A stretch of 64,000 bases of DNA from an uncultured archaeon (GCA_964558645.1 CAZLEV010000009.1:27568-91567); one strand, 5' to 3'; positions 49,680 through 59,747 are shown, counted from the stretch's first letter. The notes: generated by a model from the sequence alone, not told the origin. A program made the numbers and translations.

Positions 49680-49967
49680 CTAAGAAGTCTCGGCTGCGAT
49701 TGCTTTGAGGAATGAAGGGGGTTCAGAACCCTGATCAACAGGACGCACACGGAAGTCCATTCCTCGTTCTGCTCTGATGGAGGCCGCATTTCTTGCGCCC
49801 ACAAACTTCTTTCTCACGTCTGCATCCCGACCGTGCCAGAGAAAGACGTTCTTCCCAGGCTCATCAATGACGCAATACACTTTATCACTTTGAAGTCTTT
49901 CCGGCTTGAGATTCACTTCACGTGATGAACCGTCATCGAGCATTTCGTAGCCATGAACCATTGTCAT
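49680..49967 (-). CDS. Single-domain gelsolin-like protein (Asgard eukaryotic signature protein)
   Basis: LQSDKVYCVID..VFLWHG..A...KFVGAR.A..I...VDQGSEPPSF matches the gelsolin repeat consensus. Confidence 0.8.
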   Translation of the reverse strand: MTMVHGYEMLDDGSSREVNLKPERLQSDKVYCVIDEPGKNVFLWHGRDADVRKKFVGARNAASIRAERGMDFRVRPVDQGSEPPSFLKAIAAETS

Positions 49968-50591: not shown

Positions 50592-50951
50592 ATGCAGATT
50601 CCAGCATTTCTTCTACGAAAACTCTACGTGAAAGGAAGCCTACAGAACGCCGACGACGGCTTCATGTTCAAGATCAAGAACTCGCTTTCTCCCGGTACAT
50701 CTATTGGGATGGAACCCATTAAGGTCGATGACAATGAATACCCGCTCGACTCAACCATTATCAAGTCTGGTGATGTTGAGATCACGGCTAGCGAGATTTC
50801 AGAGGACAATCCGTTCCCAATCAAAGTTGGCGTCGAGGTCATCATTCATGTGAAAGGCGACGGACTTGAAGAAGGAGAACATAAGATCGACATTGCCCTC
50901 AAGACGAAGGAAGCCGGCACCTTGGCTTTCGATGTCAAAGATGCACTGTAG
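50592..50951 (+). CDS. Conserved hypothetical small beta-sandwich protein
   Basis: MQIPAFLLRKLYVKGSL.N, beta-rich, acidic; followed by a terminator-like hairpin. Confidence 0.65.
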   Translation: MQIPAFLLRKLYVKGSLQNADDGFMFKIKNSLSPGTSIGMEPIKVDDNEYPLDSTIIKSGDVEITASEISEDNPFPIKVGVEVIIHVKGDGLEEGEHKIDIALKTKEAGTLAFDVKDAL

Positions 50952-51086: not shown

Positions 51087-51998
51087 ATGTATGTAAAGAT
51101 AAGAACCGACGGAGCCGTTGGAATAGGAAGAGCGACAGAAGGAACTGCTGAAATAGCAATCGGCTATGGAGAAGCGCACATGATTGCGGCAGCCCTTGAG
51201 AAGCTCGCCCAGACAGCACGTGACTATAAGCAGGTCTACAAGAAGACCACAGATGTAGGGGCGGGAAACAAGATTGAGTTCGAGAGGTATGAAGACGGTA
51301 GGATAAGCATCGCGGGCGACAAGAATGCCTATTATTGCACCGAACAAGAGATACGGGAGCTTGCAAAACTTCTGAAGAGCTTGCCACCAGTCCAAGTCGC
51401 ACCACCTTCAGACTATGTGGACAAGACAGGACCTGAAGGCTCAATCTGCCTCGTAGTGAAGAATGGGGGATCTTCTGCAGGGCTGAAAATCAACGAAGCA
51501 GCATTGCTGAAGACCGCCGTAGTCAATAGCCTCGATAGCAGGTATTTCAACGAGCGCTTGGTGGTGGCAGGACGAGATCTCATCGTAAACCGCAGTAGTG
51601 ATCTGAAATGGAAACTGGAGGTCGAACAGACGCCAGTCAAGTTTACCGCTTATGAGGTTGAGGCACTCGTAGCCGGATTGCATAACGGAATCTTGGATGT
51701 CCTAATGGACTTCGTCAAATCAATGGGCTCGGACGATATTGCGGACATTCGAGTCAAGAGTCATATCCAAAGAATCGAAGAAGAGGTCCAGAAGATTATG
51801 CGTGAACACAAGGACACAAAGAAGGTGCGAAAGAATCTGTCCAATATGGCGAAGGAGATATTGGGCGGAGGCCAAGATGCAGATTCGCGAACAAACACCT
51901 TCATCAAGATGTGCAAGTATGTCTATGGTGATATCGAACGAGAGTTCGTGGATCCTCTGATGAATCTCCTCGCTGAGGCTTTCGTTGTAGAGAGCTAG
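51087..51998 (+). CDS. Hypothetical protein with repeated strand-strand-helix units
   Basis: 303-aa ORF with internal duplication; no recognised catalytic motif. Confidence 0.65.
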   Translation: MYVKIRTDGAVGIGRATEGTAEIAIGYGEAHMIAAALEKLAQTARDYKQVYKKTTDVGAGNKIEFERYEDGRISIAGDKNAYYCTEQEIRELAKLLKSLPPVQVAPPSDYVDKTGPEGSICLVVKNGGSSAGLKINEAALLKTAVVNSLDSRYFNERLVVAGRDLIVNRSSDLKWKLEVEQTPVKFTAYEVEALVAGLHNGILDVLMDFVKSMGSDDIADIRVKSHIQRIEEEVQKIMREHKDTKKVRKNLSNMAKEILGGGQDADSRTNTFIKMCKYVYGDIEREFVDPLMNLLAEAFVVES

Positions 51999-52019: not shown

Positions 52020-52931
52020 ATGATACTCTCAGGCTCACACAGGCAGCATCAAGGGGTTAGAAGACTGTCCGATCACAACTATGCAACACAGCTGGCAAGG
52101 CGGTGGGGTATGAGAGCTCCGACGCAGCTTATCAAGATGCTGAGGTTGCACAGAACACCCTTCGAAACGCTGCTTCACAACATCTTTGATGCTCTAGACC
52201 CCTTTGACGCTTCATTTGCCTTTCCAACCGTTGCAGCAGTCGCATCGATGCGACCCCATCTCGTGAAAGAGATTGTCCAAGAAGGGCATGAAATCGCAAG
52301 CCATGGATACAACCATGTTCGGTATCCGCATCTGTCGGCCAATGATCGAGAACGCGACCTCGTGAGAAGCCTCAAAACATTCGATAAGATGGGCATCGAA
52401 ATCCAAGGCTTCAGGGCGCCGTATGACAACTACACTGACGATATGCCTGGCTTGCTTGAGAGGCACGGCATCATCTGGGACGGGGGGTTGGGCTACCGTC
52501 CTGAGCACAGAAAGAAGGATCACTTCTTCAGAGTCGCTCTTGATGGAAAGATGTCAGATGTCACCTACATTCCTTTGAACATCTGGAGTGACGACCGGAT
52601 GATTGACACACTTGGAATGCAGCCGACTGAGGTGACTGAACAACTCAAGCATGAGATCCATACAGCTAAGAGGAACGGGGGAGTACTGATGTTCGACCTT
52701 CATCCGATCAGGATTGGTCAGCCCGAGTATGCGCAATGCCTTCGGGACGTAGCGGAATTCGCGCATGGGTTGGGGGCTTGGATTCCTTCACCTCATGAGG
52801 CCGTGACCTACTGGAACCAGCACAATAGATGGAGAGGTGACGCGGAATTCTGCCTGTTACTGACGGGTGACATTGATAACTGGGTTTTCGCAGATTATTT
52901 ACGTAGACAGATTTGGCGATGGTTAGGATAG
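52020..52931 (+). CDS. Polysaccharide deacetylase family protein
   Basis: GHEIASHGYNH, GFRAPY, HP. Start uncertain. Confidence 0.8.
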   Translation: MILSGSHRQHQGVRRLSDHNYATQLARRWGMRAPTQLIKMLRLHRTPFETLLHNIFDALDPFDASFAFPTVAAVASMRPHLVKEIVQEGHEIASHGYNHVRYPHLSANDRERDLVRSLKTFDKMGIEIQGFRAPYDNYTDDMPGLLERHGIIWDGGLGYRPEHRKKDHFFRVALDGKMSDVTYIPLNIWSDDRMIDTLGMQPTEVTEQLKHEIHTAKRNGGVLMFDLHPIRIGQPEYAQCLRDVAEFAHGLGAWIPSPHEAVTYWNQHNRWRGDAEFCLLLTGDIDNWVFADYLRRQIWRWLG

Positions 52932-52938
52932 TGAAGAT

Positions 52939-53388
52939 ATGAGCAGACTTCTTGGACGGATACTAAGGGTTCTTGCGTGGTTGTCACCAATCTATCAGTT
53001 CAGAGCCTCTGCACACAGGAAGTGCGGAGTCAATATCGGCAGAGGAGTGTTCATGGGCTATCTGGTACAGATAGACAGTGAGCACCCGGACTTGGTCGAG
53101 ATAGGAGATTGGGTTGCAATAGGTCCAGGGGTGAAGATCATGGCCCATGGCGGAGCGAGTGCATACCATCAGAAAATGGGTCTATTCGAAGGAAAGCCAA
53201 AGAAGGTGACCATCGAAGAGGGTGCATGGATAGCAACAGGAGCCATCATCTTGCCGGGGGTGACAGTAGGTCGCGGGGCAGTGGTGGCAGCAGGTTCAGT
53301 CGTTAGCAGGGATGTACCTCCAATGACCATGGTCGCAGGAAACCCAGCCAGAATGGTTCAGAAACTAGAGTCCAAAGCAACTAAGTAG
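52939..53388 (+). CDS. Hexapeptide-repeat (LbH) acyltransferase
   Basis: GVNIGRGV, VTIEEGAWIATGAIILPGVTVGRGAVVAAGSVVSRDVPP..VAGNPAR. Confidence 0.9.
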   Translation: MSRLLGRILRVLAWLSPIYQFRASAHRKCGVNIGRGVFMGYLVQIDSEHPDLVEIGDWVAIGPGVKIMAHGGASAYHQKMGLFEGKPKKVTIEEGAWIATGAIILPGVTVGRGAVVAAGSVVSRDVPPMTMVAGNPARMVQKLESKATK

Positions 53389-53620
53389 CGAGTTTTTGGC
53401 GAAGAGCAGCCTTAACGTCGCCAACAGTCCACATCTCAACAACTTCTTCATCTTCAAAGAAGATACCAAACTCATTCTCGATTTCACTGACGAGAAGAAG
53501 GTGTGCCATCGAATCCCATGGTTCATACTCCTTTCGTCTGATGTCATCAGATAGCTCTTCGGGTTCGATAAGCAGTACCTTAACCAAGATGTCCGTAAGG
53601 CGTTCTTCGCTGTCAGCCAT
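53381..53620 (-). CDS. Acyl carrier protein
   Basis: 79 aa, acidic; WDSMAHLLLVSEIENEFGI..TVGD with the phosphopantetheine Ser. Start at 53620 or 53626. Confidence 0.88.
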   Translation of the reverse strand: MADSEERLTDILVKVLLIEPEELSDDIRRKEYEPWDSMAHLLLVSEIENEFGIFFEDEEVVEMWTVGDVKAALRQKLAT

Positions 53621-53622
53621 CT

Positions 53623-55455
53623 TCATTCCTCGACCATCTCGATCCAGTCTGGAACTGGTATATTTTCTTTCTCGATATCTAGTGCCCATCTCGTGATTCG
53701 CTCTGAGTCTGTTCCAACTTCTTCAAAACCATGACGCTCATAGAGGTCCCTTGCGGGGGGATTCTTCTTTGTTGGAATGACCTCACCAATGACTCTGCGT
53801 GCATTTCTCTCCCGTGCATAGGAGACTATCTTCGACAGGAACGCTGTTTCCACAGATCGGCCGATGACTCTACAACTCATAAGAAAAGAATCGATTATGC
53901 AGTCATCATTCTCCATTTTCGTGATTGCTACCCCTACAATCCCTTCATCGCCGAACTTGTCCTTCACGGACATACTGAAGACAGCGTATTCATCAGACTC
54001 TCTGAACGATTCCACCTCTGCGTCAGTATACCGACGGGTTGTCAGGTTGAATTGATTGGTCTTCCCTATCAGTTGAACTACTCGCGGCTTGCCGAAGTCA
54101 TCGACTTGCTTCACCTGCACTTTCAAGTCAAGCGTTCTAAGGAAGTCATCCACGGAACCAGTCTTCTCTTCGAGTTCTGCTCTCTTCCGTTTCCCGACGT
54201 ACATCTCTCCTCGCTTCATGTCTTCCCGCGTCAGTGAAAGAACATCAAAGACCTTCAAATTCTCCAGAGTCTCTCGATACATCTGCGGGTTTTCTGGCAT
54301 CTCTACAACCAGTACCTCAGGGAAAGCCTGATGGACTTGTGCTCTCTCATGAGGGTTATCATCCATGAATACCATACTGTCAAGACCAATGTTGATCTCT
54401 TCAGCAAGTTCCGTCATGTTCTGTGCCTTATTCTGCCAATTAATCCTGAAAGCAGCGAAGTGTTCCTCTCTGAGAATCTGATGGGGATGCTCGCGGATGG
54501 GTTTCATCGCATCATCCCAGTTGTTCTTGCTGTTGATTGCCAGAATGACTCCCCGATTGTAGAGACTCAGTAATGCTCGCTGGAAGTCCATGAATTCGAC
54601 TCCGGGAGGGGTCGGTCCCAGTCGTATTCCTTCGATTCCATCTTCCCCCACCACTCCACCCCAGAGGGTGTTATCCAGATCAAGGACTATGCACTTCTTA
54701 GTCAAACCCTTGAGGGCTCTAACATACCTCGCATACTCTGAGGCAAGAGAGGGCAGGAAATCAGTGGCGAACATCACCGATCCTCTGTAGTATGTCTTCC
54801 AGTCTACCACTCTCGACTTACCATAGCTTCCACTGACAGAATCGAGGTCGAAAACGAAGACCGTCGAATCATCCCGAAAGGTCCGCTCGAGCCTCTTGTT
54901 GGCCTCCCCGAAGAATCGACGAAGACCAATCTCTTCTTTGTTATCCACAACGCCAAAAGGAGTAAACTCAGGAACGATGAAGTTGTTGACTACCACGAGG
55001 GCGGATCCATTATCTCTCAGGGCCTCTACAACACTGACCAAATCAACAACCATCTGCTGCAGATGATCCTCACGTTCATCTTGATTCATCCTCACGAATC
55101 TCGCGGTGAACATGGCGTCAAGAAGTGAAGTAGCGTCCACAGCAAGAATGACGAGATCCGACTGATGCTGGTAGAGTGCCGAGTCACTGTCCAATGCCTC
55201 CTGACGGTACATATTGAAGCCGCCGACGAAGGTCTCAGGCTGAAGACCCATGAGCCTGACTTTAACATCAAGGCAGGCGGCAACGGGCTCCAAGGTGGAT
55301 GACCCGATGATGGCTAGACGTATCGTCTTCTTCTCATCGTCTGACGGTTCAAGTTCAAGCTTCTGGATTCTCTTGTATGCACTCCAGAGGTCAAGGTAAC
55401 TGTTCTCATCCTTGATGGACCTGAGAATCTTATCTAGAGCATCAGAACTGTTCAT
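53623..55455 (-). CDS. fkbH: FkbH-like HAD-IIIC glyceryl-ACP-forming enzyme
   Basis: KCIVLDLDNTLWGGVVGEDG, SKNN, INWQNK, FMDDNPHER, KTNQFNLTT, DKFGD.G, FLMSCRV.GR. Confidence 0.9.
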   Translation of the reverse strand: MNSSDALDKILRSIKDENSYLDLWSAYKRIQKLELEPSDDEKKTIRLAIIGSSTLEPVAACLDVKVRLMGLQPETFVGGFNMYRQEALDSDSALYQHQSDLVILAVDATSLLDAMFTARFVRMNQDEREDHLQQMVVDLVSVVEALRDNGSALVVVNNFIVPEFTPFGVVDNKEEIGLRRFFGEANKRLERTFRDDSTVFVFDLDSVSGSYGKSRVVDWKTYYRGSVMFATDFLPSLASEYARYVRALKGLTKKCIVLDLDNTLWGGVVGEDGIEGIRLGPTPPGVEFMDFQRALLSLYNRGVILAINSKNNWDDAMKPIREHPHQILREEHFAAFRINWQNKAQNMTELAEEINIGLDSMVFMDDNPHERAQVHQAFPEVLVVEMPENPQMYRETLENLKVFDVLSLTREDMKRGEMYVGKRKRAELEEKTGSVDDFLRTLDLKVQVKQVDDFGKPRVVQLIGKTNQFNLTTRRYTDAEVESFRESDEYAVFSMSVKDKFGDEGIVGVAITKMENDDCIIDSFLMSCRVIGRSVETAFLSKIVSYARERNARRVIGEVIPTKKNPPARDLYERHGFEEVGTDSERITRWALDIEKENIPVPDWIEMVEE

Positions 55456-55891
55456 CTGCGTCAGCACTCCTCGTTGACAATTCGGTTGCCATTCCATTTA
55501 GTAGTTTGCGAACGTATTCGTCATCTAGGCTGTTACCGGCAGGAATCGCCAAGGCCACAGCCGCCGCGTAGTTGTCAGTATGTGATAGACTTACAATCAC
55601 TCGGTGAGTGGCAAAAGGTCGCTCAACATGTGGCGCACCGCTTTCGTCGTGTAGAATCTCAATCTTGTTCAATGATTCTCCATGCCTGATACCTATTGCT
55701 TTCAAGACAGCCTCTTTCGCGGCAAAAGTCGCTGCAAGATGGGGTATCGGGTCAGAAAAGGCTCGGCAGTATTCTAGTTCGCGTCTTGTGTATATCCGGG
55801 TATAGAACGAAGACTCATCAGCAATGACTCGAAATCGCTTCAACTCGGTGATATCGACACCAATCCCAAGGCCATCATCAGACTGCATCAT
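55442..55891 (-). CDS. acpS: Holo-ACP synthase (4'-phosphopantetheinyl transferase)
   Basis: GIGVDI..L.RF, E..YC, A..FAAKEA..KA, GAP, SLSH...YA.A.A. Confidence 0.9.
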   Translation of the reverse strand: MMQSDDGLGIGVDITELKRFRVIADESSFYTRIYTRRELEYCRAFSDPIPHLAATFAAKEAVLKAIGIRHGESLNKIEILHDESGAPHVERPFATHRVIVSLSHTDNYAAAVALAIPAGNSLDDEYVRKLLNGMATELSTRSADADEQF

Positions 55892-55943
55892 TCTTCTCAC
55901 TCGGTACGGGCTGATGAAGGTGCGCCTATTCTTAAATTCTGAG

Positions 55944-57380
55944 TTATTCGTCCTCAAGTCGGTCCACATCTCGCTCCATCACAGATGTAGACCACGGATA
56001 CCGATCTAGAATACGGTCCATGAGGCGACGAACCTTCCTCTCTTCGGACGTACCTGAGTACACAAGAAGAATGACGAGACCACCTCGTGTCCGCTTGAAC
56101 TTCTGGTACATAGTCTTTGTTGTATTGATGGCATCACATACCACCATAACATCTGCCTGAGGGATGTCAAGGTCACGTTCGCCTACGGGAGACAGAACCA
56201 GAGCTCGTAACTCGGTCTCTTCTCTGAAAGCCCTCAGGACTTCACCCTTATCGCTTGTCTGCCCAGTAATGCGCTCCGCTCTGATGCCGGCCTTCTCCAG
56301 AGCTTCAACTAGTTGATCAACCATTTCTAAATACGAAGTCAGAATGAGGGTCTTTCGGTATCTCTTCGCAATGGAGACAGCAGGGGGGACTTTCGGTGAA
56401 ACGTCGGGTAGTGTTCGCCGCAGGTCGTTCACGTTGAAGTAATGCTTCAGATAAGGATTGTAGAACATCTTGATAGATTGGCTTGGTGGCATTGCATAGA
56501 CGTATTTACGCAATAGCAGCAATCCAGTATACCTGCCCTTCAGTTCGTCTGAGATTGGCAACCGTTCAATCATCATGTGGACTCTTCGGGCATCGCCCTC
56601 CACCAGAGACAGATTGTCACTGTCGGCAAGCTCGTTGAAAATCTCGTTCCTGGTGTTGCGTATCAACTCATCCAGCACGAGACTGATTGAACGAATCTGA
56701 CGGTTGTCTACTTGACTGACCGTGAGAAATGTTGATTCAAGATACTCCCCGATGTCAGTATCGTAGAGGTCGTCCATAGATATCATCTTGGAGTTTGGGA
56801 TGAATCTCTGAAGAGTTGCGAGCTCGTCACGAATCTCCACCTGCTCTCTTCCAAAGACTGCATGATCATCCCGTAGTGTTCCGCTCATTCCAATTATCCA
56901 TTTATCGCGGAAAAAAGAGAGGAGTTTGGCCCAAGGAAAAACCAAGGCGGTTCGTCCCCCAGATCGTCGTACAAGCGTATCAACCTCGTTGATAAGAAGA
57001 ATGTCTATGTCTTCGAACAGCAAGGGGTTCTTCTGTACAGCATTCGCAAGCACCTGAGGTGTGGCCACAATAACTCGGTTCTCCCGAATCACATACGGGC
57101 GCCTCCCAGATGGAACTCGTGAGGAAAGCTCTCCCAAGTCGTCTTCCAGTCCTCCGTACTCACCCTTCAAGTAGTCCACTGTTTCAGCGAGCGAGGAGCT
57201 CGAATGAACAACGATTATGATGCGACGGTTAGGATACCTCTCTGCAACTAGTTGATGTGTGATGAATCGCTTTCCAAGACCACAGTCTAGCTCAAGCAGA
57301 GTATTCTGGCCCGTCATATTCTCCAGCTGGCTCAGGATGTATTCCTGATATCCTCGCGGAGTGTATTTGGCATTGGTCAT
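55944..57380 (-). CDS. SF2 (Hef/DEAH-like) helicase homolog with degenerate motifs
   Basis: PR.YQ, LDCGLGKR, ATPQ, INEVD, GMSGT, DLDIP, QKFKRTR. Confidence 0.7.
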   Translation of the reverse strand: MTNAKYTPRGYQEYILSQLENMTGQNTLLELDCGLGKRFITHQLVAERYPNRRIIIVVHSSSSLAETVDYLKGEYGGLEDDLGELSSRVPSGRRPYVIRENRVIVATPQVLANAVQKNPLLFEDIDILLINEVDTLVRRSGGRTALVFPWAKLLSFFRDKWIIGMSGTLRDDHAVFGREQVEIRDELATLQRFIPNSKMISMDDLYDTDIGEYLESTFLTVSQVDNRQIRSISLVLDELIRNTRNEIFNELADSDNLSLVEGDARRVHMMIERLPISDELKGRYTGLLLLRKYVYAMPPSQSIKMFYNPYLKHYFNVNDLRRTLPDVSPKVPPAVSIAKRYRKTLILTSYLEMVDQLVEALEKAGIRAERITGQTSDKGEVLRAFREETELRALVLSPVGERDLDIPQADVMVVCDAINTTKTMYQKFKRTRGGLVILLVYSGTSEERKVRRLMDRILDRYPWSTSVMERDVDRLEDE

Positions 57381-57474
57381 GGTATCACCCAGTTCCCTAG
57401 AGAGGGATATGAACTCAACTTAGACACGCTTGTATATCTTTGCCACAACCAGGAGAGGGGTGAGAGGACAACAG

Positions 57475-58299
57475 CTAGTCACTGACGCTATGCTTCTCCT
57501 CAGAGCGGACTAGTCCTACTTCAACCGGTTGCGCCTTTCGGGGTATTATCTTGCCATTGACCCAGATGGAGTTCGGGGGAATCACTTTGTCTTTCGGAAC
57601 TGTAGAGTTTGCCGCAATAATCACATCATCTCCAATCTGGGCACCGGGAAGAACCACTGCATTGGCACCAATCAATACACGATCACCGATGGTGACTTCT
57701 TTGAGATAGAGGCCGCGCCCCTCATAGACATGCCCAGACACTATCGCGTCATAACCGAAGAAGCAATCGTCACCTATCACAGTTCGTTCCGGATTGAAGA
57801 GCCGACCGTTTCCAACAATTGTGTTCGATCCTATCTTTGCACCAAATAGGATGTGTCGCGGCTTGGTATCCAAAAAGACTGTGAAGAACCATGCGAAGTA
57901 GGGAAACAGTACATAGTATACCTCGTAGAGCTCATAGAGCAACCACTCCTCGGTTTCTATGGGGTAGAATCCGTCAGGAAGGTCGGGTATGAGTCGACGA
58001 GAGAGCTTGAACAGAGCTAGGGTGAATCCTAAGAATAACGAATATGATATGAGCGCGATCGGAACAAAGAGCAGCAAGAACCAAAATCGTTCATAAACAA
58101 ACGTTGGCAGGAATGTACCTAGAAGCAGCTCGGCGTAGATAGGAAGGTCAGAAAAAATCCAACCAATTTCTCGAACCCAGACATCTATGTTGTTGTACAT
58201 GGCAAAGAGGAAGAAGAGTCCGGGGATAGATGCTAGTGTAAGACTGAGAAATACGGATAGCACCATGTAAGCGGAATATGCAATAGATCGTGGTTTCAT
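57475..58299 (-). CDS. Membrane-bound hexapeptide-repeat acyltransferase
   Basis: N-terminal TM helices, then LFGAKIG, IGDDCFFG, GH, VTIGDRVLIGANAVVLPGAQIGD. Confidence 0.8.
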   Translation of the reverse strand: MKPRSIAYSAYMVLSVFLSLTLASIPGLFFLFAMYNNIDVWVREIGWIFSDLPIYAELLLGTFLPTFVYERFWFLLLFVPIALISYSLFLGFTLALFKLSRRLIPDLPDGFYPIETEEWLLYELYEVYYVLFPYFAWFFTVFLDTKPRHILFGAKIGSNTIVGNGRLFNPERTVIGDDCFFGYDAIVSGHVYEGRGLYLKEVTIGDRVLIGANAVVLPGAQIGDDVIIAANSTVPKDKVIPPNSIWVNGKIIPRKAQPVEVGLVRSEEKHSVSD

Positions 58300-58496: not shown

Positions 58497-59747
58497 ATGA
58501 GCGTAAAGGTGCCTATGATGGTTCATGATGTAGTAATTGTTGGTACAGGTCCTGCAGGACTGATGACGGCGGAGCAGTCCGCAGCGAAGGGACTAGACAC
58601 ACTTGTTCTAGAGAAGAGGAAGAGAGTGACCGATTCGCTCATGGGGGAACTCGTGACTGACAAGGCCCTCAGAATGCTAAGGGTGAAACCGACCTCCGAG
58701 TATGTCGGAAACAAGTTCACAGCCATAATAGGAGAGAGTCTTGATACAGGGGCCAACATCGTCGTTGACAGAACCCTGCTTGGAAACTCCTATCTCTTAG
58801 ATGAGGACCGCTGTCAGGAATTGATGCGAGATAGAGCTCTTTCAGACGGAGCTGAATTCCGCTACAATAGCCGTGTTGATTCGGTGAACACGGAGAATGG
58901 CACAGTCGTCGGCGTCAGATATAACAAGACTGAGACTGCAAGAGCGGGCCTCACTGTCGGCGCAGACGGATCCTTCAGTAGGGTGTCAGCGACAGCCGGT
59001 TTTACGCACCCAAAGTGGCTTTTGAGCTACGGATATCGTTACAAACTCGCTAATTGCAAGAATGTTGACCCTGGAACGGCGTATTTCTACGTGGGAGAAG
59101 ATGTGGGCCTTGGCTATCTCTGGCTCTATCCTCGAAGTGAAACAGAGGTCAATCTCGGCATAGGAAGAGTGCCTTCCTCGGTTGAGAACTGGAATAAGCT
59201 GATGCCGATGAGAAACGTACTGGACAAATATATGCGGGAACACGAAGAAACTCGCAATGCAAAGATTGTTTCTGTGAACGGCGGAGTTGTGCCATGTGCA
59301 GGAATAATCCCAAGATTCACTGATGCGGGCGTTTCATTATGCGGTAACTCAGCAGGCCAAGTTAGTAGTATTGTTGGCGGCGGGGTTACAACTTGTCTTC
59401 ACGCAGGGAGAATGCTATCACAGCATGCAAGACGGATGACGGACAAGTCGGACTACTCCGCAAAAAGCGTCAAGCAATACGAGAAAGAGTATCGAAACAG
59501 CAAACTTGCATACAACATCACTCAGACTGGAAAGGGAATGTATGCTGTGGCCAAATACGCCATGTTCAATGATCCCATCGATGCAGCAGAGATCGTATTG
59601 GAGGAGTTGGATGCTAGGACACTCAACGAGTTGATACAGGGTACTGCAGGAATTCCTACATACATGAGCCTGTTCAGCAATTTTCTCCCGATGGTAATCA
59701 GAATCGGGGTTGGATACCTGAAGGCAATCGCAGTGAGCGGACCATAG
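58497..59747 (+). CDS. Geranylgeranyl reductase family flavoprotein
   Basis: DVVIVGTGPAG, GADG..S, GYLWLYP, GNSAGQV...GGG. Confidence 0.8.
   Translation: MSVKVPMMVHDVVIVGTGPAGLMTAEQSAAKGLDTLVLEKRKRVTDSLMGELVTDKALRMLRVKPTSEYVGNKFTAIIGESLDTGANIVVDRTLLGNSYLLDEDRCQELMRDRALSDGAEFRYNSRVDSVNTENGTVVGVRYNKTETARAGLTVGADGSFSRVSATAGFTHPKWLLSYGYRYKLANCKNVDPGTAYFYVGEDVGLGYLWLYPRSETEVNLGIGRVPSSVENWNKLMPMRNVLDKYMREHEETRNAKIVSVNGGVVPCAGIIPRFTDAGVSLCGNSAGQVSSIVGGGVTTCLHAGRMLSQHARRMTDKSDYSAKSVKQYEKEYRNSKLAYNITQTGKGMYAVAKYAMFNDPIDAAEIVLEELDARTLNELIQGTAGIPTYMSLFSNFLPMVIRIGVGYLKAIAVSGP

Follow-up and report, generated by a model that had tools for sequence, protein, structure and literature searches.

What use does an archaeon make of an acyl carrier protein (ACP)? 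By the textbook account, archaea have neither ACP nor the enzyme that activates it. The question is raised by a locus in a 64,000-nucleotide stretch of DNA from an uncultured archaeon (GCA_964558645.1, CAZLEV010000009.1:27568-91567), referred to here at its full length as the window. The locus carries genes for an ACP, an AcpS-type 4'-phosphopantetheinyl transferase (PPTase) and a long-form FkbH-like enzyme, together with genes for a CE4 amidohydrolase/deacetylase and a small acyltransferase of the left-handed β-helix (LbH) type. These five genes form an accessory cassette and are inherited together. The cassette is read here as a cytoplasmic, carrier-protein-dependent acylation system, in which a deacetylated amino sugar would be re-acylated with a glyceroyl group delivered by the ACP. 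This reading is given an even chance of being correct.

The gene layout was derived from an open reading frame listing and from profile searches against Pfam and NCBIfam. The five cassette genes are as follows.

52110..52931, + strand: CE4 (NodB-fold) amidohydrolase/deacetylase, 273 aa; the frame is open from 52020, and the database gene call at 52110 is the likely start
52939..53388, + strand: small LbH (hexapeptide) acyltransferase, 149 aa
53381..53626, - strand: dedicated ACP, 81 aa from MKMAD; the phosphopantetheine site is the Ser in WDSM
53623..55455, - strand: long-form FkbH-like enzyme, 610 aa, with FkbH_N, HAD-IIIC phosphatase and GNAT-fold C-terminal domains
55442..55891, - strand: AcpS-type 4'-phosphopantetheinyl transferase, 149 aa from the MMQSDD start

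The original prediction described overlapping acpS, fkbH and ACP genes with intact catalytic motifs, and this was confirmed: AKEA, DLDNT, SCR and WDS were all read, the acpS stop overlaps the fkbH start by 14 bp, and an ATGA is common to the fkbH stop and the ACP start. The deacetylase and LbH acyltransferase genes, described as a convergent pair reaching the ACP stop, were also found as stated, with an overlap of 8 bp between the 3' ends of the convergent small LbH and ACP genes.

AcpS scored 68.2 bits against TIGR00516 (cut-off 59.8) and 60.5 bits against PF01648 (cut-off 25), and contains the motifs GVDI and FAAKEAVLKA. The ACP contains the motif EPWDSMAHL, in which W37, D38 and H42 do not vary and 21 of 22 orthologues keep Ser39. 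In an orthologue at L007:11252-11485 (+ strand), WDAM replaces WDSM at the phosphopantetheine site; judged from its sequence, this would be either an inactive carrier or a sequencing variant. Genome-wide, in an assembly that is 92.8% complete, one PP-binding protein and one PPTase were found, and both are encoded in the acpS-fkbH-ACP operon. The claim that the window has no ketosynthase, polyketide synthase (PKS), nonribosomal peptide synthetase (NRPS) or MBOAT gene could be extended to the whole genome for most of these; NRPS domains were not searched for separately. No match to MBOAT (PF03062) was obtained in the genome, and its ketoacyl-synt and FabH-like matches are weak thiolase/HMG-CoA-synthase-type genes on other contigs, with archaeal control genomes matching likewise. 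Three ACP_syn_III_C matches were found, all on other contigs, and one of them stands beside a thiolase-like gene, an arrangement that fits the archaeal HMG-CoA synthase complex.

The general statement that archaea lack ACP-based chemistry proved too broad for the Asgard group, as 123 of the 400 Asgard genomes encode a PPTase, in many cases as part of a PKS-like megasynthase. Many non-Thorarchaeal Asgard genomes contain frames of 3,200-3,800 aa for megasynthases resembling type I PKS or polyunsaturated fatty acid synthases, with a built-in Sfp-type PPTase. These frames are distributed over families f8 (28/31), f9, f10, f13 (11/12), f21 and some of f22, and are absent from the Thorarchaeal family. 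An example is L129:287-9937 (+ strand; G016:C1, ~568286-577936). The Pfam order in these megasynthases is partial NMO/ER, KS, AT, a KSIII-like region, three tandem ACPs, KR, PKS_DH and PPTase.

The FkbH-like enzyme scored 312.9 bits against the NCBIfam model TIGR01686 (cut-off 146.65) and 82.1 bits against HAD-IIIC (cut-off 35.75), and was also matched by PF21211. The motifs VLDLDNTLWGG and FLMSCRVIGR are intact. Among 25 diverse homologues, the HAD catalytic residues D259, D261, T263, S309, K343, D365 and D366 are invariant, as are S527, C528 and R529, of which Cys528 lies in the GNAT-fold C-terminal domain. The predicted structure had a pLDDT of 88, and its N-terminal and HAD parts superposed on PDB 3slr with a TMt of 0.88. 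This entry, a fragment of B. fragilis BF1531 that covers the N-terminal and HAD parts, was the sole solved structure matched by sequence search, and a fold search with the model returned no full-length FkbH structure. The C-terminal part of the predicted model resembles GNAT folds (TMt 0.7-0.77). The GNAT fold binds pantetheine arms, and the modelled domain would fit a transfer to holo-ACP. The reaction known for the FkbH family is the conversion of 1,3-bisphosphoglycerate to glyceryl-S-ACP (PMC7489565, PMC13122637), and the long-form enzyme is proposed, from its sequence, to be a glyceryl-S-ACP synthase.

A second, long-branch FkbH-like paralogue with no ACP or AcpS gene adjacent to it was observed in family f8 and as an extra copy in some Thorarchaeia (loci L089-L094, L096, L105, L109, L111 and L115-L118, e.g. 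G011:C38:289942-290874). This paralogue scored 250-266 bits against TIGR01686 and about 200-237 bits against the FkbH of the window. In family f8 a gene resembling geranylgeranyl reductase (GGR) is located about 3.4 kb downstream of it.

The CE4 protein scored 51.3 bits against PF01522 (cut-off 23.1) and was also matched by DUF2334. Its AlphaFold model (pLDDT 92) was nearest to a cytosolic CE4 group of about 300 residues comprising PuuE allantoinase, 3rxz, 1z7a, 3s6o and HP0310. Foldseek matches to 3cl6, 3rxz, 1z7a and 3qbu had E values from 6e-11 to 1e-8 and a TMq of about 0.7. Invariant in 16 orthologues are H65 and H69 (HGYNH, H-x-x-x-H) and the motifs RAPY, WSDD, DLHP and TGDIDN. No signal peptide and no transmembrane segment were detected in the CE4 sequence; the enzyme looks cytoplasmic, and all five cassette proteins appear to be so. 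The best 120 homologues of the CE4 protein were from Asgard archaea wherever they were labelled.

The small LbH protein scored 44.4 bits against PF00132 (cut-off 27), and a His of the catalytic type, His70, is invariant in 20 orthologues. Its nearest NCBIfam models were WcaF (73.8 bits), maltose O-acetyltransferase (63.1 bits) and NeuD types, all of them far below their cut-offs. A co-fold of the ACP with LbH proteins had been suggested in the original prediction. When performed with the small LbH trimer, it gave a score of 0.58, compared with 0.01 for the best of three controls, which is weak support. At least 95% of contacts were common to the runs, and the pLDDT of the partner was no lower than 82. 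Of 80 solved complexes, 58 pass the mark used, as do 2 of 110 mismatched pairs, and scores of 0.60 or lower among these passes belong to 7 of the 80 solved complexes and to both mismatches. LbH-ACP complexes of the lipid A enzymes are solved, and the modelled pass may stem from likeness to them. The small LbH protein is proposed as the transferase of the acyl group borne by the ACP.

The membership of the cassette was assessed in a Thorarchaeal family sample of 86 genomes in 16 genera. Orthologues of FkbH, AcpS, the small LbH and CE4 occur only in one shared set of nine genera (g1, g2, g3, g5, g6, g7, g8, g12 and g16), with one truncated FkbH in g9 as the lone exception. A PPTase is present in 36 of the 39 FkbH-positive genomes, the FkbH of the other three being cut at or close to a contig end, and FkbH is present in 36 of the 38 PPTase-positive genomes. 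The genes and the element that surround the cassette in the window are as follows.

49680..49967, - strand: gelsolin-repeat protein, 95 aa, just outside the Thorarchaeal neighbourhood of the cassette
50592..50951, + strand: 119-aa protein that matches only the HMG-CoA reductase N-terminal domain, just outside the same neighbourhood
51087..51998, + strand: 303-aa conserved Thorarchaeal neighbour, adjoining the CE4 gene
55927..55936, - strand: TATA-like element TTTAAGAATA, located by direct reading of the sequence within the 52 bp that separate the helicase stop from the acpS start
55944..57380, - strand: helicase-like protein of superfamily 2 (SF2), 478 aa
57475..58299, - strand: membrane LbH protein, 274 aa, with four transmembrane helices and an LbH domain
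58497..59747, + strand: GGR, divergent from the membrane LbH gene

The order in Thorarchaeia is GGR, membrane LbH, helicase, AcpS, FkbH, ACP, small LbH, CE4 and the 303-aa protein, with occasional insertions. The membrane LbH gene upstream had originally been counted as part of the system. The gene is present, but the SF2 helicase-like gene, which had gone unmentioned, intervenes before acpS, and the distribution of the membrane LbH contradicts its assignment. It was found in 76 of the 86 genomes, including every genus without FkbH; in the genera that have no cassette (g4, g9, g10, g11, g13, g14 and g15) it still stands beside the helicase gene. The helicase-like gene was found in 79 of the 86 genomes and in all 16 genera, at 58-71% identity and independently of the cassette. 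Both were rejected as members because they occur in genera without the cassette, and both are core Thorarchaeal genes. The motifs of the helicase-like protein look degenerate, with GLGKR for GxGKT and NEVD for DExD/H. A tandem duplicate of the membrane LbH gene was observed in some genomes (L002, G320 and G378), and the position of the membrane LbH gene beside GGR hints at a possible role in lipid chemistry. The TATA-like element is a possible separate promoter of the acpS-fkbH-ACP operon. For the 303-aa protein, no Pfam, NCBIfam or usable Atlas match was obtained. It lies beside CE4 throughout Thorarchaeia (366-430 bits in most family loci). The cassettes of other Asgard families have no copy of it alongside, and for this reason it was not counted as a member. 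In one genome (G365), which has no FkbH, AcpS or small LbH, the membrane LbH and helicase genes are followed by a CE4 remnant with two in-frame TAG stops (G365:C7:24799-25212), which suggests that the cassette decayed and was lost as a whole.

Clustering of the five genes was also found in other Asgard archaea. Families f10, f11 and f13 and assembly GCA_016840025 have all five within about 1.5 kb of FkbH, in other gene orders. In family f11, which includes a Hodarchaeota record, LbH converges on the row CE4, AcpS, FkbH and ACP; family f13, like the Hodarchaeota record of f11, has a divergent LbH beside these four genes. GCA_016840025 has the order CE4, LbH, FkbH and ACP, on which AcpS converges. 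In none of these four groups was the helicase or the membrane LbH found at the cassette. A gene for the oligosaccharyltransferase AglB/STT3 is located divergently beside the cassette in three genomes (two of f11 and GCA_016840025). The co-occurrence supports a self-contained carrier pathway of PPTase, loader and ACP that is tied in function to CE4 and the small LbH. Of the complete minimal thiotemplate pathway that had been predicted, the carrier genes and their genus-level association with CE4 and the small LbH were thereby retained, and the membrane LbH was excluded.

The wider FkbH family was examined for its gene context. Long FkbH proteins matching at E ≤1e-30 fall into 6,977 clusters at 50% identity and occur in many bacterial phyla as well as in Nitrososphaeria, Nanoarchaeota, Micrarchaeota and Methanospirillaceae. 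In a sample of 80 loci from species genomes of bacteria and archaea, an ACP was found within 200 bp of FkbH in 65 loci, and an AcpS near FkbH in 11 loci, mostly from archaea, Candidate Phyla Radiation bacteria and Dehalococcoidia. An LbH-like gene was located within 3 kb in 24 loci and a CE4-like gene in six, four of them Asgard. Recurrent neighbours of the bacterial FkbH-ACP pairs were SDR, LbH acyltransferase, Glyoxalase_4, GT4 and GT2 glycosyltransferases, NDP-sugar epimerase/dehydratases, UDP-glucose dehydrogenase and an asparagine-synthase-type amidotransferase. To judge by these genes, the bacterial neighbourhoods have the make-up of polysaccharide loci. Glycerate-derived acyl groups are known on a bacterial surface sugar, the pseudaminic acid of C. 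jejuni (PMC3068675). Literature searches returned no paper on the present cassette or on FkbH in archaea, and no published enzymology was found for the FkbH-ACP cassettes of bacterial polysaccharide loci.

Glyoxalase_4 (VOC) is a frequent sixth gene in the non-Thorarchaeal Asgard cassettes, namely in Hodarchaeales-like and f13 genomes (L099:10525-10932, L113:5044-5460 and L087:7667-8083, all on the - strand). A homologue adjoins FkbH in 22 of the 80 mostly bacterial loci, and it is missing from the Thorarchaeal cassette. Glyoxalase_4 belongs to the fold class of methylmalonyl-CoA epimerase, and it may tailor or epimerise the C3 acyl-ACP.

From these genes we infer a cytoplasmic route from 1,3-bisphosphoglycerate to an acylated amino sugar. 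AcpS would turn the cassette ACP, the only carrier protein of the genome, into its holo form. The long FkbH would draw a C3 unit from 1,3-bisphosphoglycerate, which its HAD domain would dephosphorylate; the unit would be parked on Cys528 of the GNAT-fold domain and handed to holo-ACP, giving glyceryl-S-ACP. The cytoplasmic CE4 enzyme would de-N-acetylate an amino-sugar intermediate; the most plausible candidate is a surface-glycan precursor of the N-acetylglucosamine (GlcNAc) type, either soluble or lipid-linked. Finally, the small LbH would accept acyl-ACP as its donor and move the glyceroyl group onto the freed amine, so that an N-glyceroyl-hexosamine would replace N-acetylhexosamine (HexNAc) in the envelope. 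No dehydratase, reductase, methyltransferase or VOC gene is present in the Thorarchaeal cassette, and the C3 unit therefore probably stays a glyceroyl group.

The proposed route was compared with known systems. The glyceryl-S-ACP synthases of the FkbH, OzmB and tetronate systems, which serve methoxymalonyl-ACP and tetronate biosynthesis with stand-alone ACPs, resemble the cassette in enzyme family, HAD motifs, the conserved Cys and a discrete ACP encoded immediately downstream. The cassette and the window differ from these systems in having no PKS or NRPS, no FkbG/I/K-type dehydrogenases, no methyltransferase and no FabH-like tetronate synthase. The host of the cassette is moreover an archaeon that encodes no second carrier protein, CE4 and LbH take the place of the usual partners, and the activity is predicted from the genes. 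With regard to the methoxymalonyl-ACP pathway (FkbG/H/I/J/K), no acyl-ACP dehydrogenase or O-methyltransferase was found in the cassette, in the window from 47.4 to 64 kb or in the other Asgard versions. A FabH-like condensing enzyme, as in the tetronate 'glycerate-utilisation' operon, was not found in the cassette, and Dlt-like surface acylation of the MBOAT type is not indicated by the genome, in which no MBOAT was found at the completeness given above.

In the NodB/NodA/NodF system, a CE4 de-N-acetylase frees the amine of GlcNAc, which is then N-acylated from a dedicated ACP. The logic proposed for the cassette is alike, with a cytoplasmic CE4 followed by N-acylation from a dedicated ACP, but the transferase is an LbH protein and not NodA, and in place of a fatty acid made with a ketosynthase the acyl group would be a C3 hydroxy acid supplied by FkbH. 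The sequence relationship is limited to the CE4 fold. LpxC and LpxD (and LpxA) likewise deacetylate an amino sugar and re-acylate it with a trimeric LbH enzyme that uses acyl-ACP, and this sequence of events, with an LbH enzyme and an ACP donor, is shared by the proposed route. LpxC is however not a CE4 enzyme, the small LbH matches LpxA and LpxD at no more than 35 bits, and the acyl group and acceptor would differ. Related gene content is found in the FkbH-ACP cassettes of bacterial polysaccharide and nonulosonic-acid loci, in which a long FkbH and an ACP stand amid sugar-nucleotide and glycosyltransferase genes, often with an LbH. These cassettes usually add SDR, glyoxalase-type or other tailoring genes, have no CE4 and rarely have an AcpS of their own. 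FkbH-ACP pairs are widespread in bacterial polysaccharide loci, and what is new here is the coupling of the FkbH/ACP loader to CE4 and LbH in Asgard archaea.

A number of observations weigh against the deacetylation and re-acylation of an amino sugar. The ACP scored 20.7-20.9 bits against the PP-binding model, just at the Pfam cut-off of 20.8, and no more than 29 bits against NCBIfam ACP models with cut-offs of at least 66. The CE4 enzyme has no canonical N-terminal Asp-Asp (TFDD), for which the invariant WSDD and the C-terminal TGDID are candidate substitutes, and its nearest structures include a small-molecule amidohydrolase, PuuE allantoinase, so that the substrate need not be a sugar. The small LbH is nearer to models of CoA-dependent O-acetyltransferases (WcaF, maltose, galactoside) than to LpxA/LpxD, and its co-fold pass with the ACP is of the weak class. 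No glycosyltransferase, flippase or AglB gene was found near the cassette in Thorarchaeia, where AglB lies on another contig. Finally, the conserved gene order within one archaeal class is partly explicable by common descent rather than by function.

Some of these observations fit other explanations. The same ACP donor could serve an LbH that O-acylates a hydroxyl of a glycan, a lipid head group or a polymer, with CE4 as an esterase for the editing or removal of this ester, or of an O-acetyl group, instead of a de-N-acetylase. The similarity of the small LbH to sugar O-acetyltransferases and the presence of acetylxylan esterases among the CE4 structural matches (2cc0, 7fbw and 2c71) would agree with this. 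The LbH matches are however too far below the family cut-offs to assign a substrate, the top structural neighbours of CE4 are amidohydrolases or deacetylases, and an acyltransferase and an esterase acting on the same bond in a co-inherited cassette would be less economical than deacetylation followed by re-acylation. O-acylation is considered unlikely. Instead of an envelope glycan, the cassette might make or modify a small soluble compound, for instance a specialised metabolite, a solute or a cofactor-like substance, with CE4 cleaving a small amide and LbH acylating the product. This would explain why the top structural match of the CE4 model is PuuE allantoinase (3cl6, E 6e-11, TMq 0.72), why the Thorarchaeal cassette has no flanking glycan genes and why all five proteins appear cytoplasmic. 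Against it stand the adjacency of AglB in three genomes, the bacterial FkbH-ACP relatives in polysaccharide loci and the fact that no extra tailoring or export genes accompany the cassette; a small-molecule product is regarded as rather improbable.

Transfer at the membrane was also considered, with the upstream membrane LbH, which resembles a Pls-type NRPS terminal unit, taking the acyl group from the ACP and the helicase encoded in the same operon. The membrane LbH, helicase and acpS genes are co-directional with gaps of 94 and 52 bp, their order is retained across Thorarchaeia, and the membrane LbH gives a weak, partial match to TIGR02353 (50 bits, cut-off 423). The small LbH shows the same partial match, however, which marks it as generic, and the TATA-like element separates the helicase gene from acpS. 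Together with the presence of the membrane LbH beside the helicase in seven cassette-free genera and the absence of both from the cassettes of the other Asgard groups, this makes its involvement very improbable. Last, the segment could be a bacterial contaminant, or have been transferred very recently and do nothing in the archaeon. Most FkbH-ACP pairs are from bacteria, and the source metagenome-assembled genome (3.63 Mb in 37 contigs) has an estimated contamination of 6.3%. The G+C content is nevertheless flat across the window, and the flanking genes for GGR, the gelsolin-repeat protein and the HMG-CoA-reductase N-domain protein are archaeal or typical of Asgard archaea. More than 120 FkbH orthologue clusters of 60-83% identity were found, named Thorarchaeota or Promethearchaeota where a name was given, some of them on contigs of 1.55 and 3.16 Mb. 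Among bacterial and further archaeal homologues the Asgard cassette FkbH proteins form one clade, with a FastTree SH-like support of 96 (118 rows) and an SH-aLRT of 98 in an IQ-TREE quick search (56 rows); the Thorarchaeal proteins form a sub-clade with a support of 100. Because of the single Asgard clade and the Thorarchaeota orthologues on long contigs, contamination is given a negligible probability. Of the outcomes that would have spoken against the original prediction, contamination was thereby set aside, and CE4 and the small LbH do co-occur with fkbH elsewhere; the membrane LbH is independent of fkbH.

Re-acylation of a deacetylated amino sugar with glyceroyl is kept as the preferred reading. 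In its most specific form, Thorarchaeia and Heimdallarchaeia (Hodarchaeales-like) would exchange the N-acetyl group on an amino sugar of their N-glycans for glyceroyl, by deacetylation and re-acylation from an ACP, along a route with an origin independent of NodB/NodA and LpxC/LpxD; this would be the only use of ACP in Thorarchaeal cells, and it would be gained or lost as one cassette. This fuller statement is tentative, and we consider it more doubtful than not.

The ACP and PPTase described here are the sole carrier system of an Asgard genome, and they are kept only with an FkbH loader, a CE4 and an LbH. If the proposed function is correct, the surface glycans of Asgard archaea, among them Hodarchaeales-like relatives of eukaryotes, would carry a new modification of an amino sugar. 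Its mass signature would be a HexN-glyceroyl residue of 249.085 Da, 46.006 Da above HexNAc. The long FkbH-ACP pairs of polysaccharide loci, a class both very large and uncharacterised, would also be given a function.

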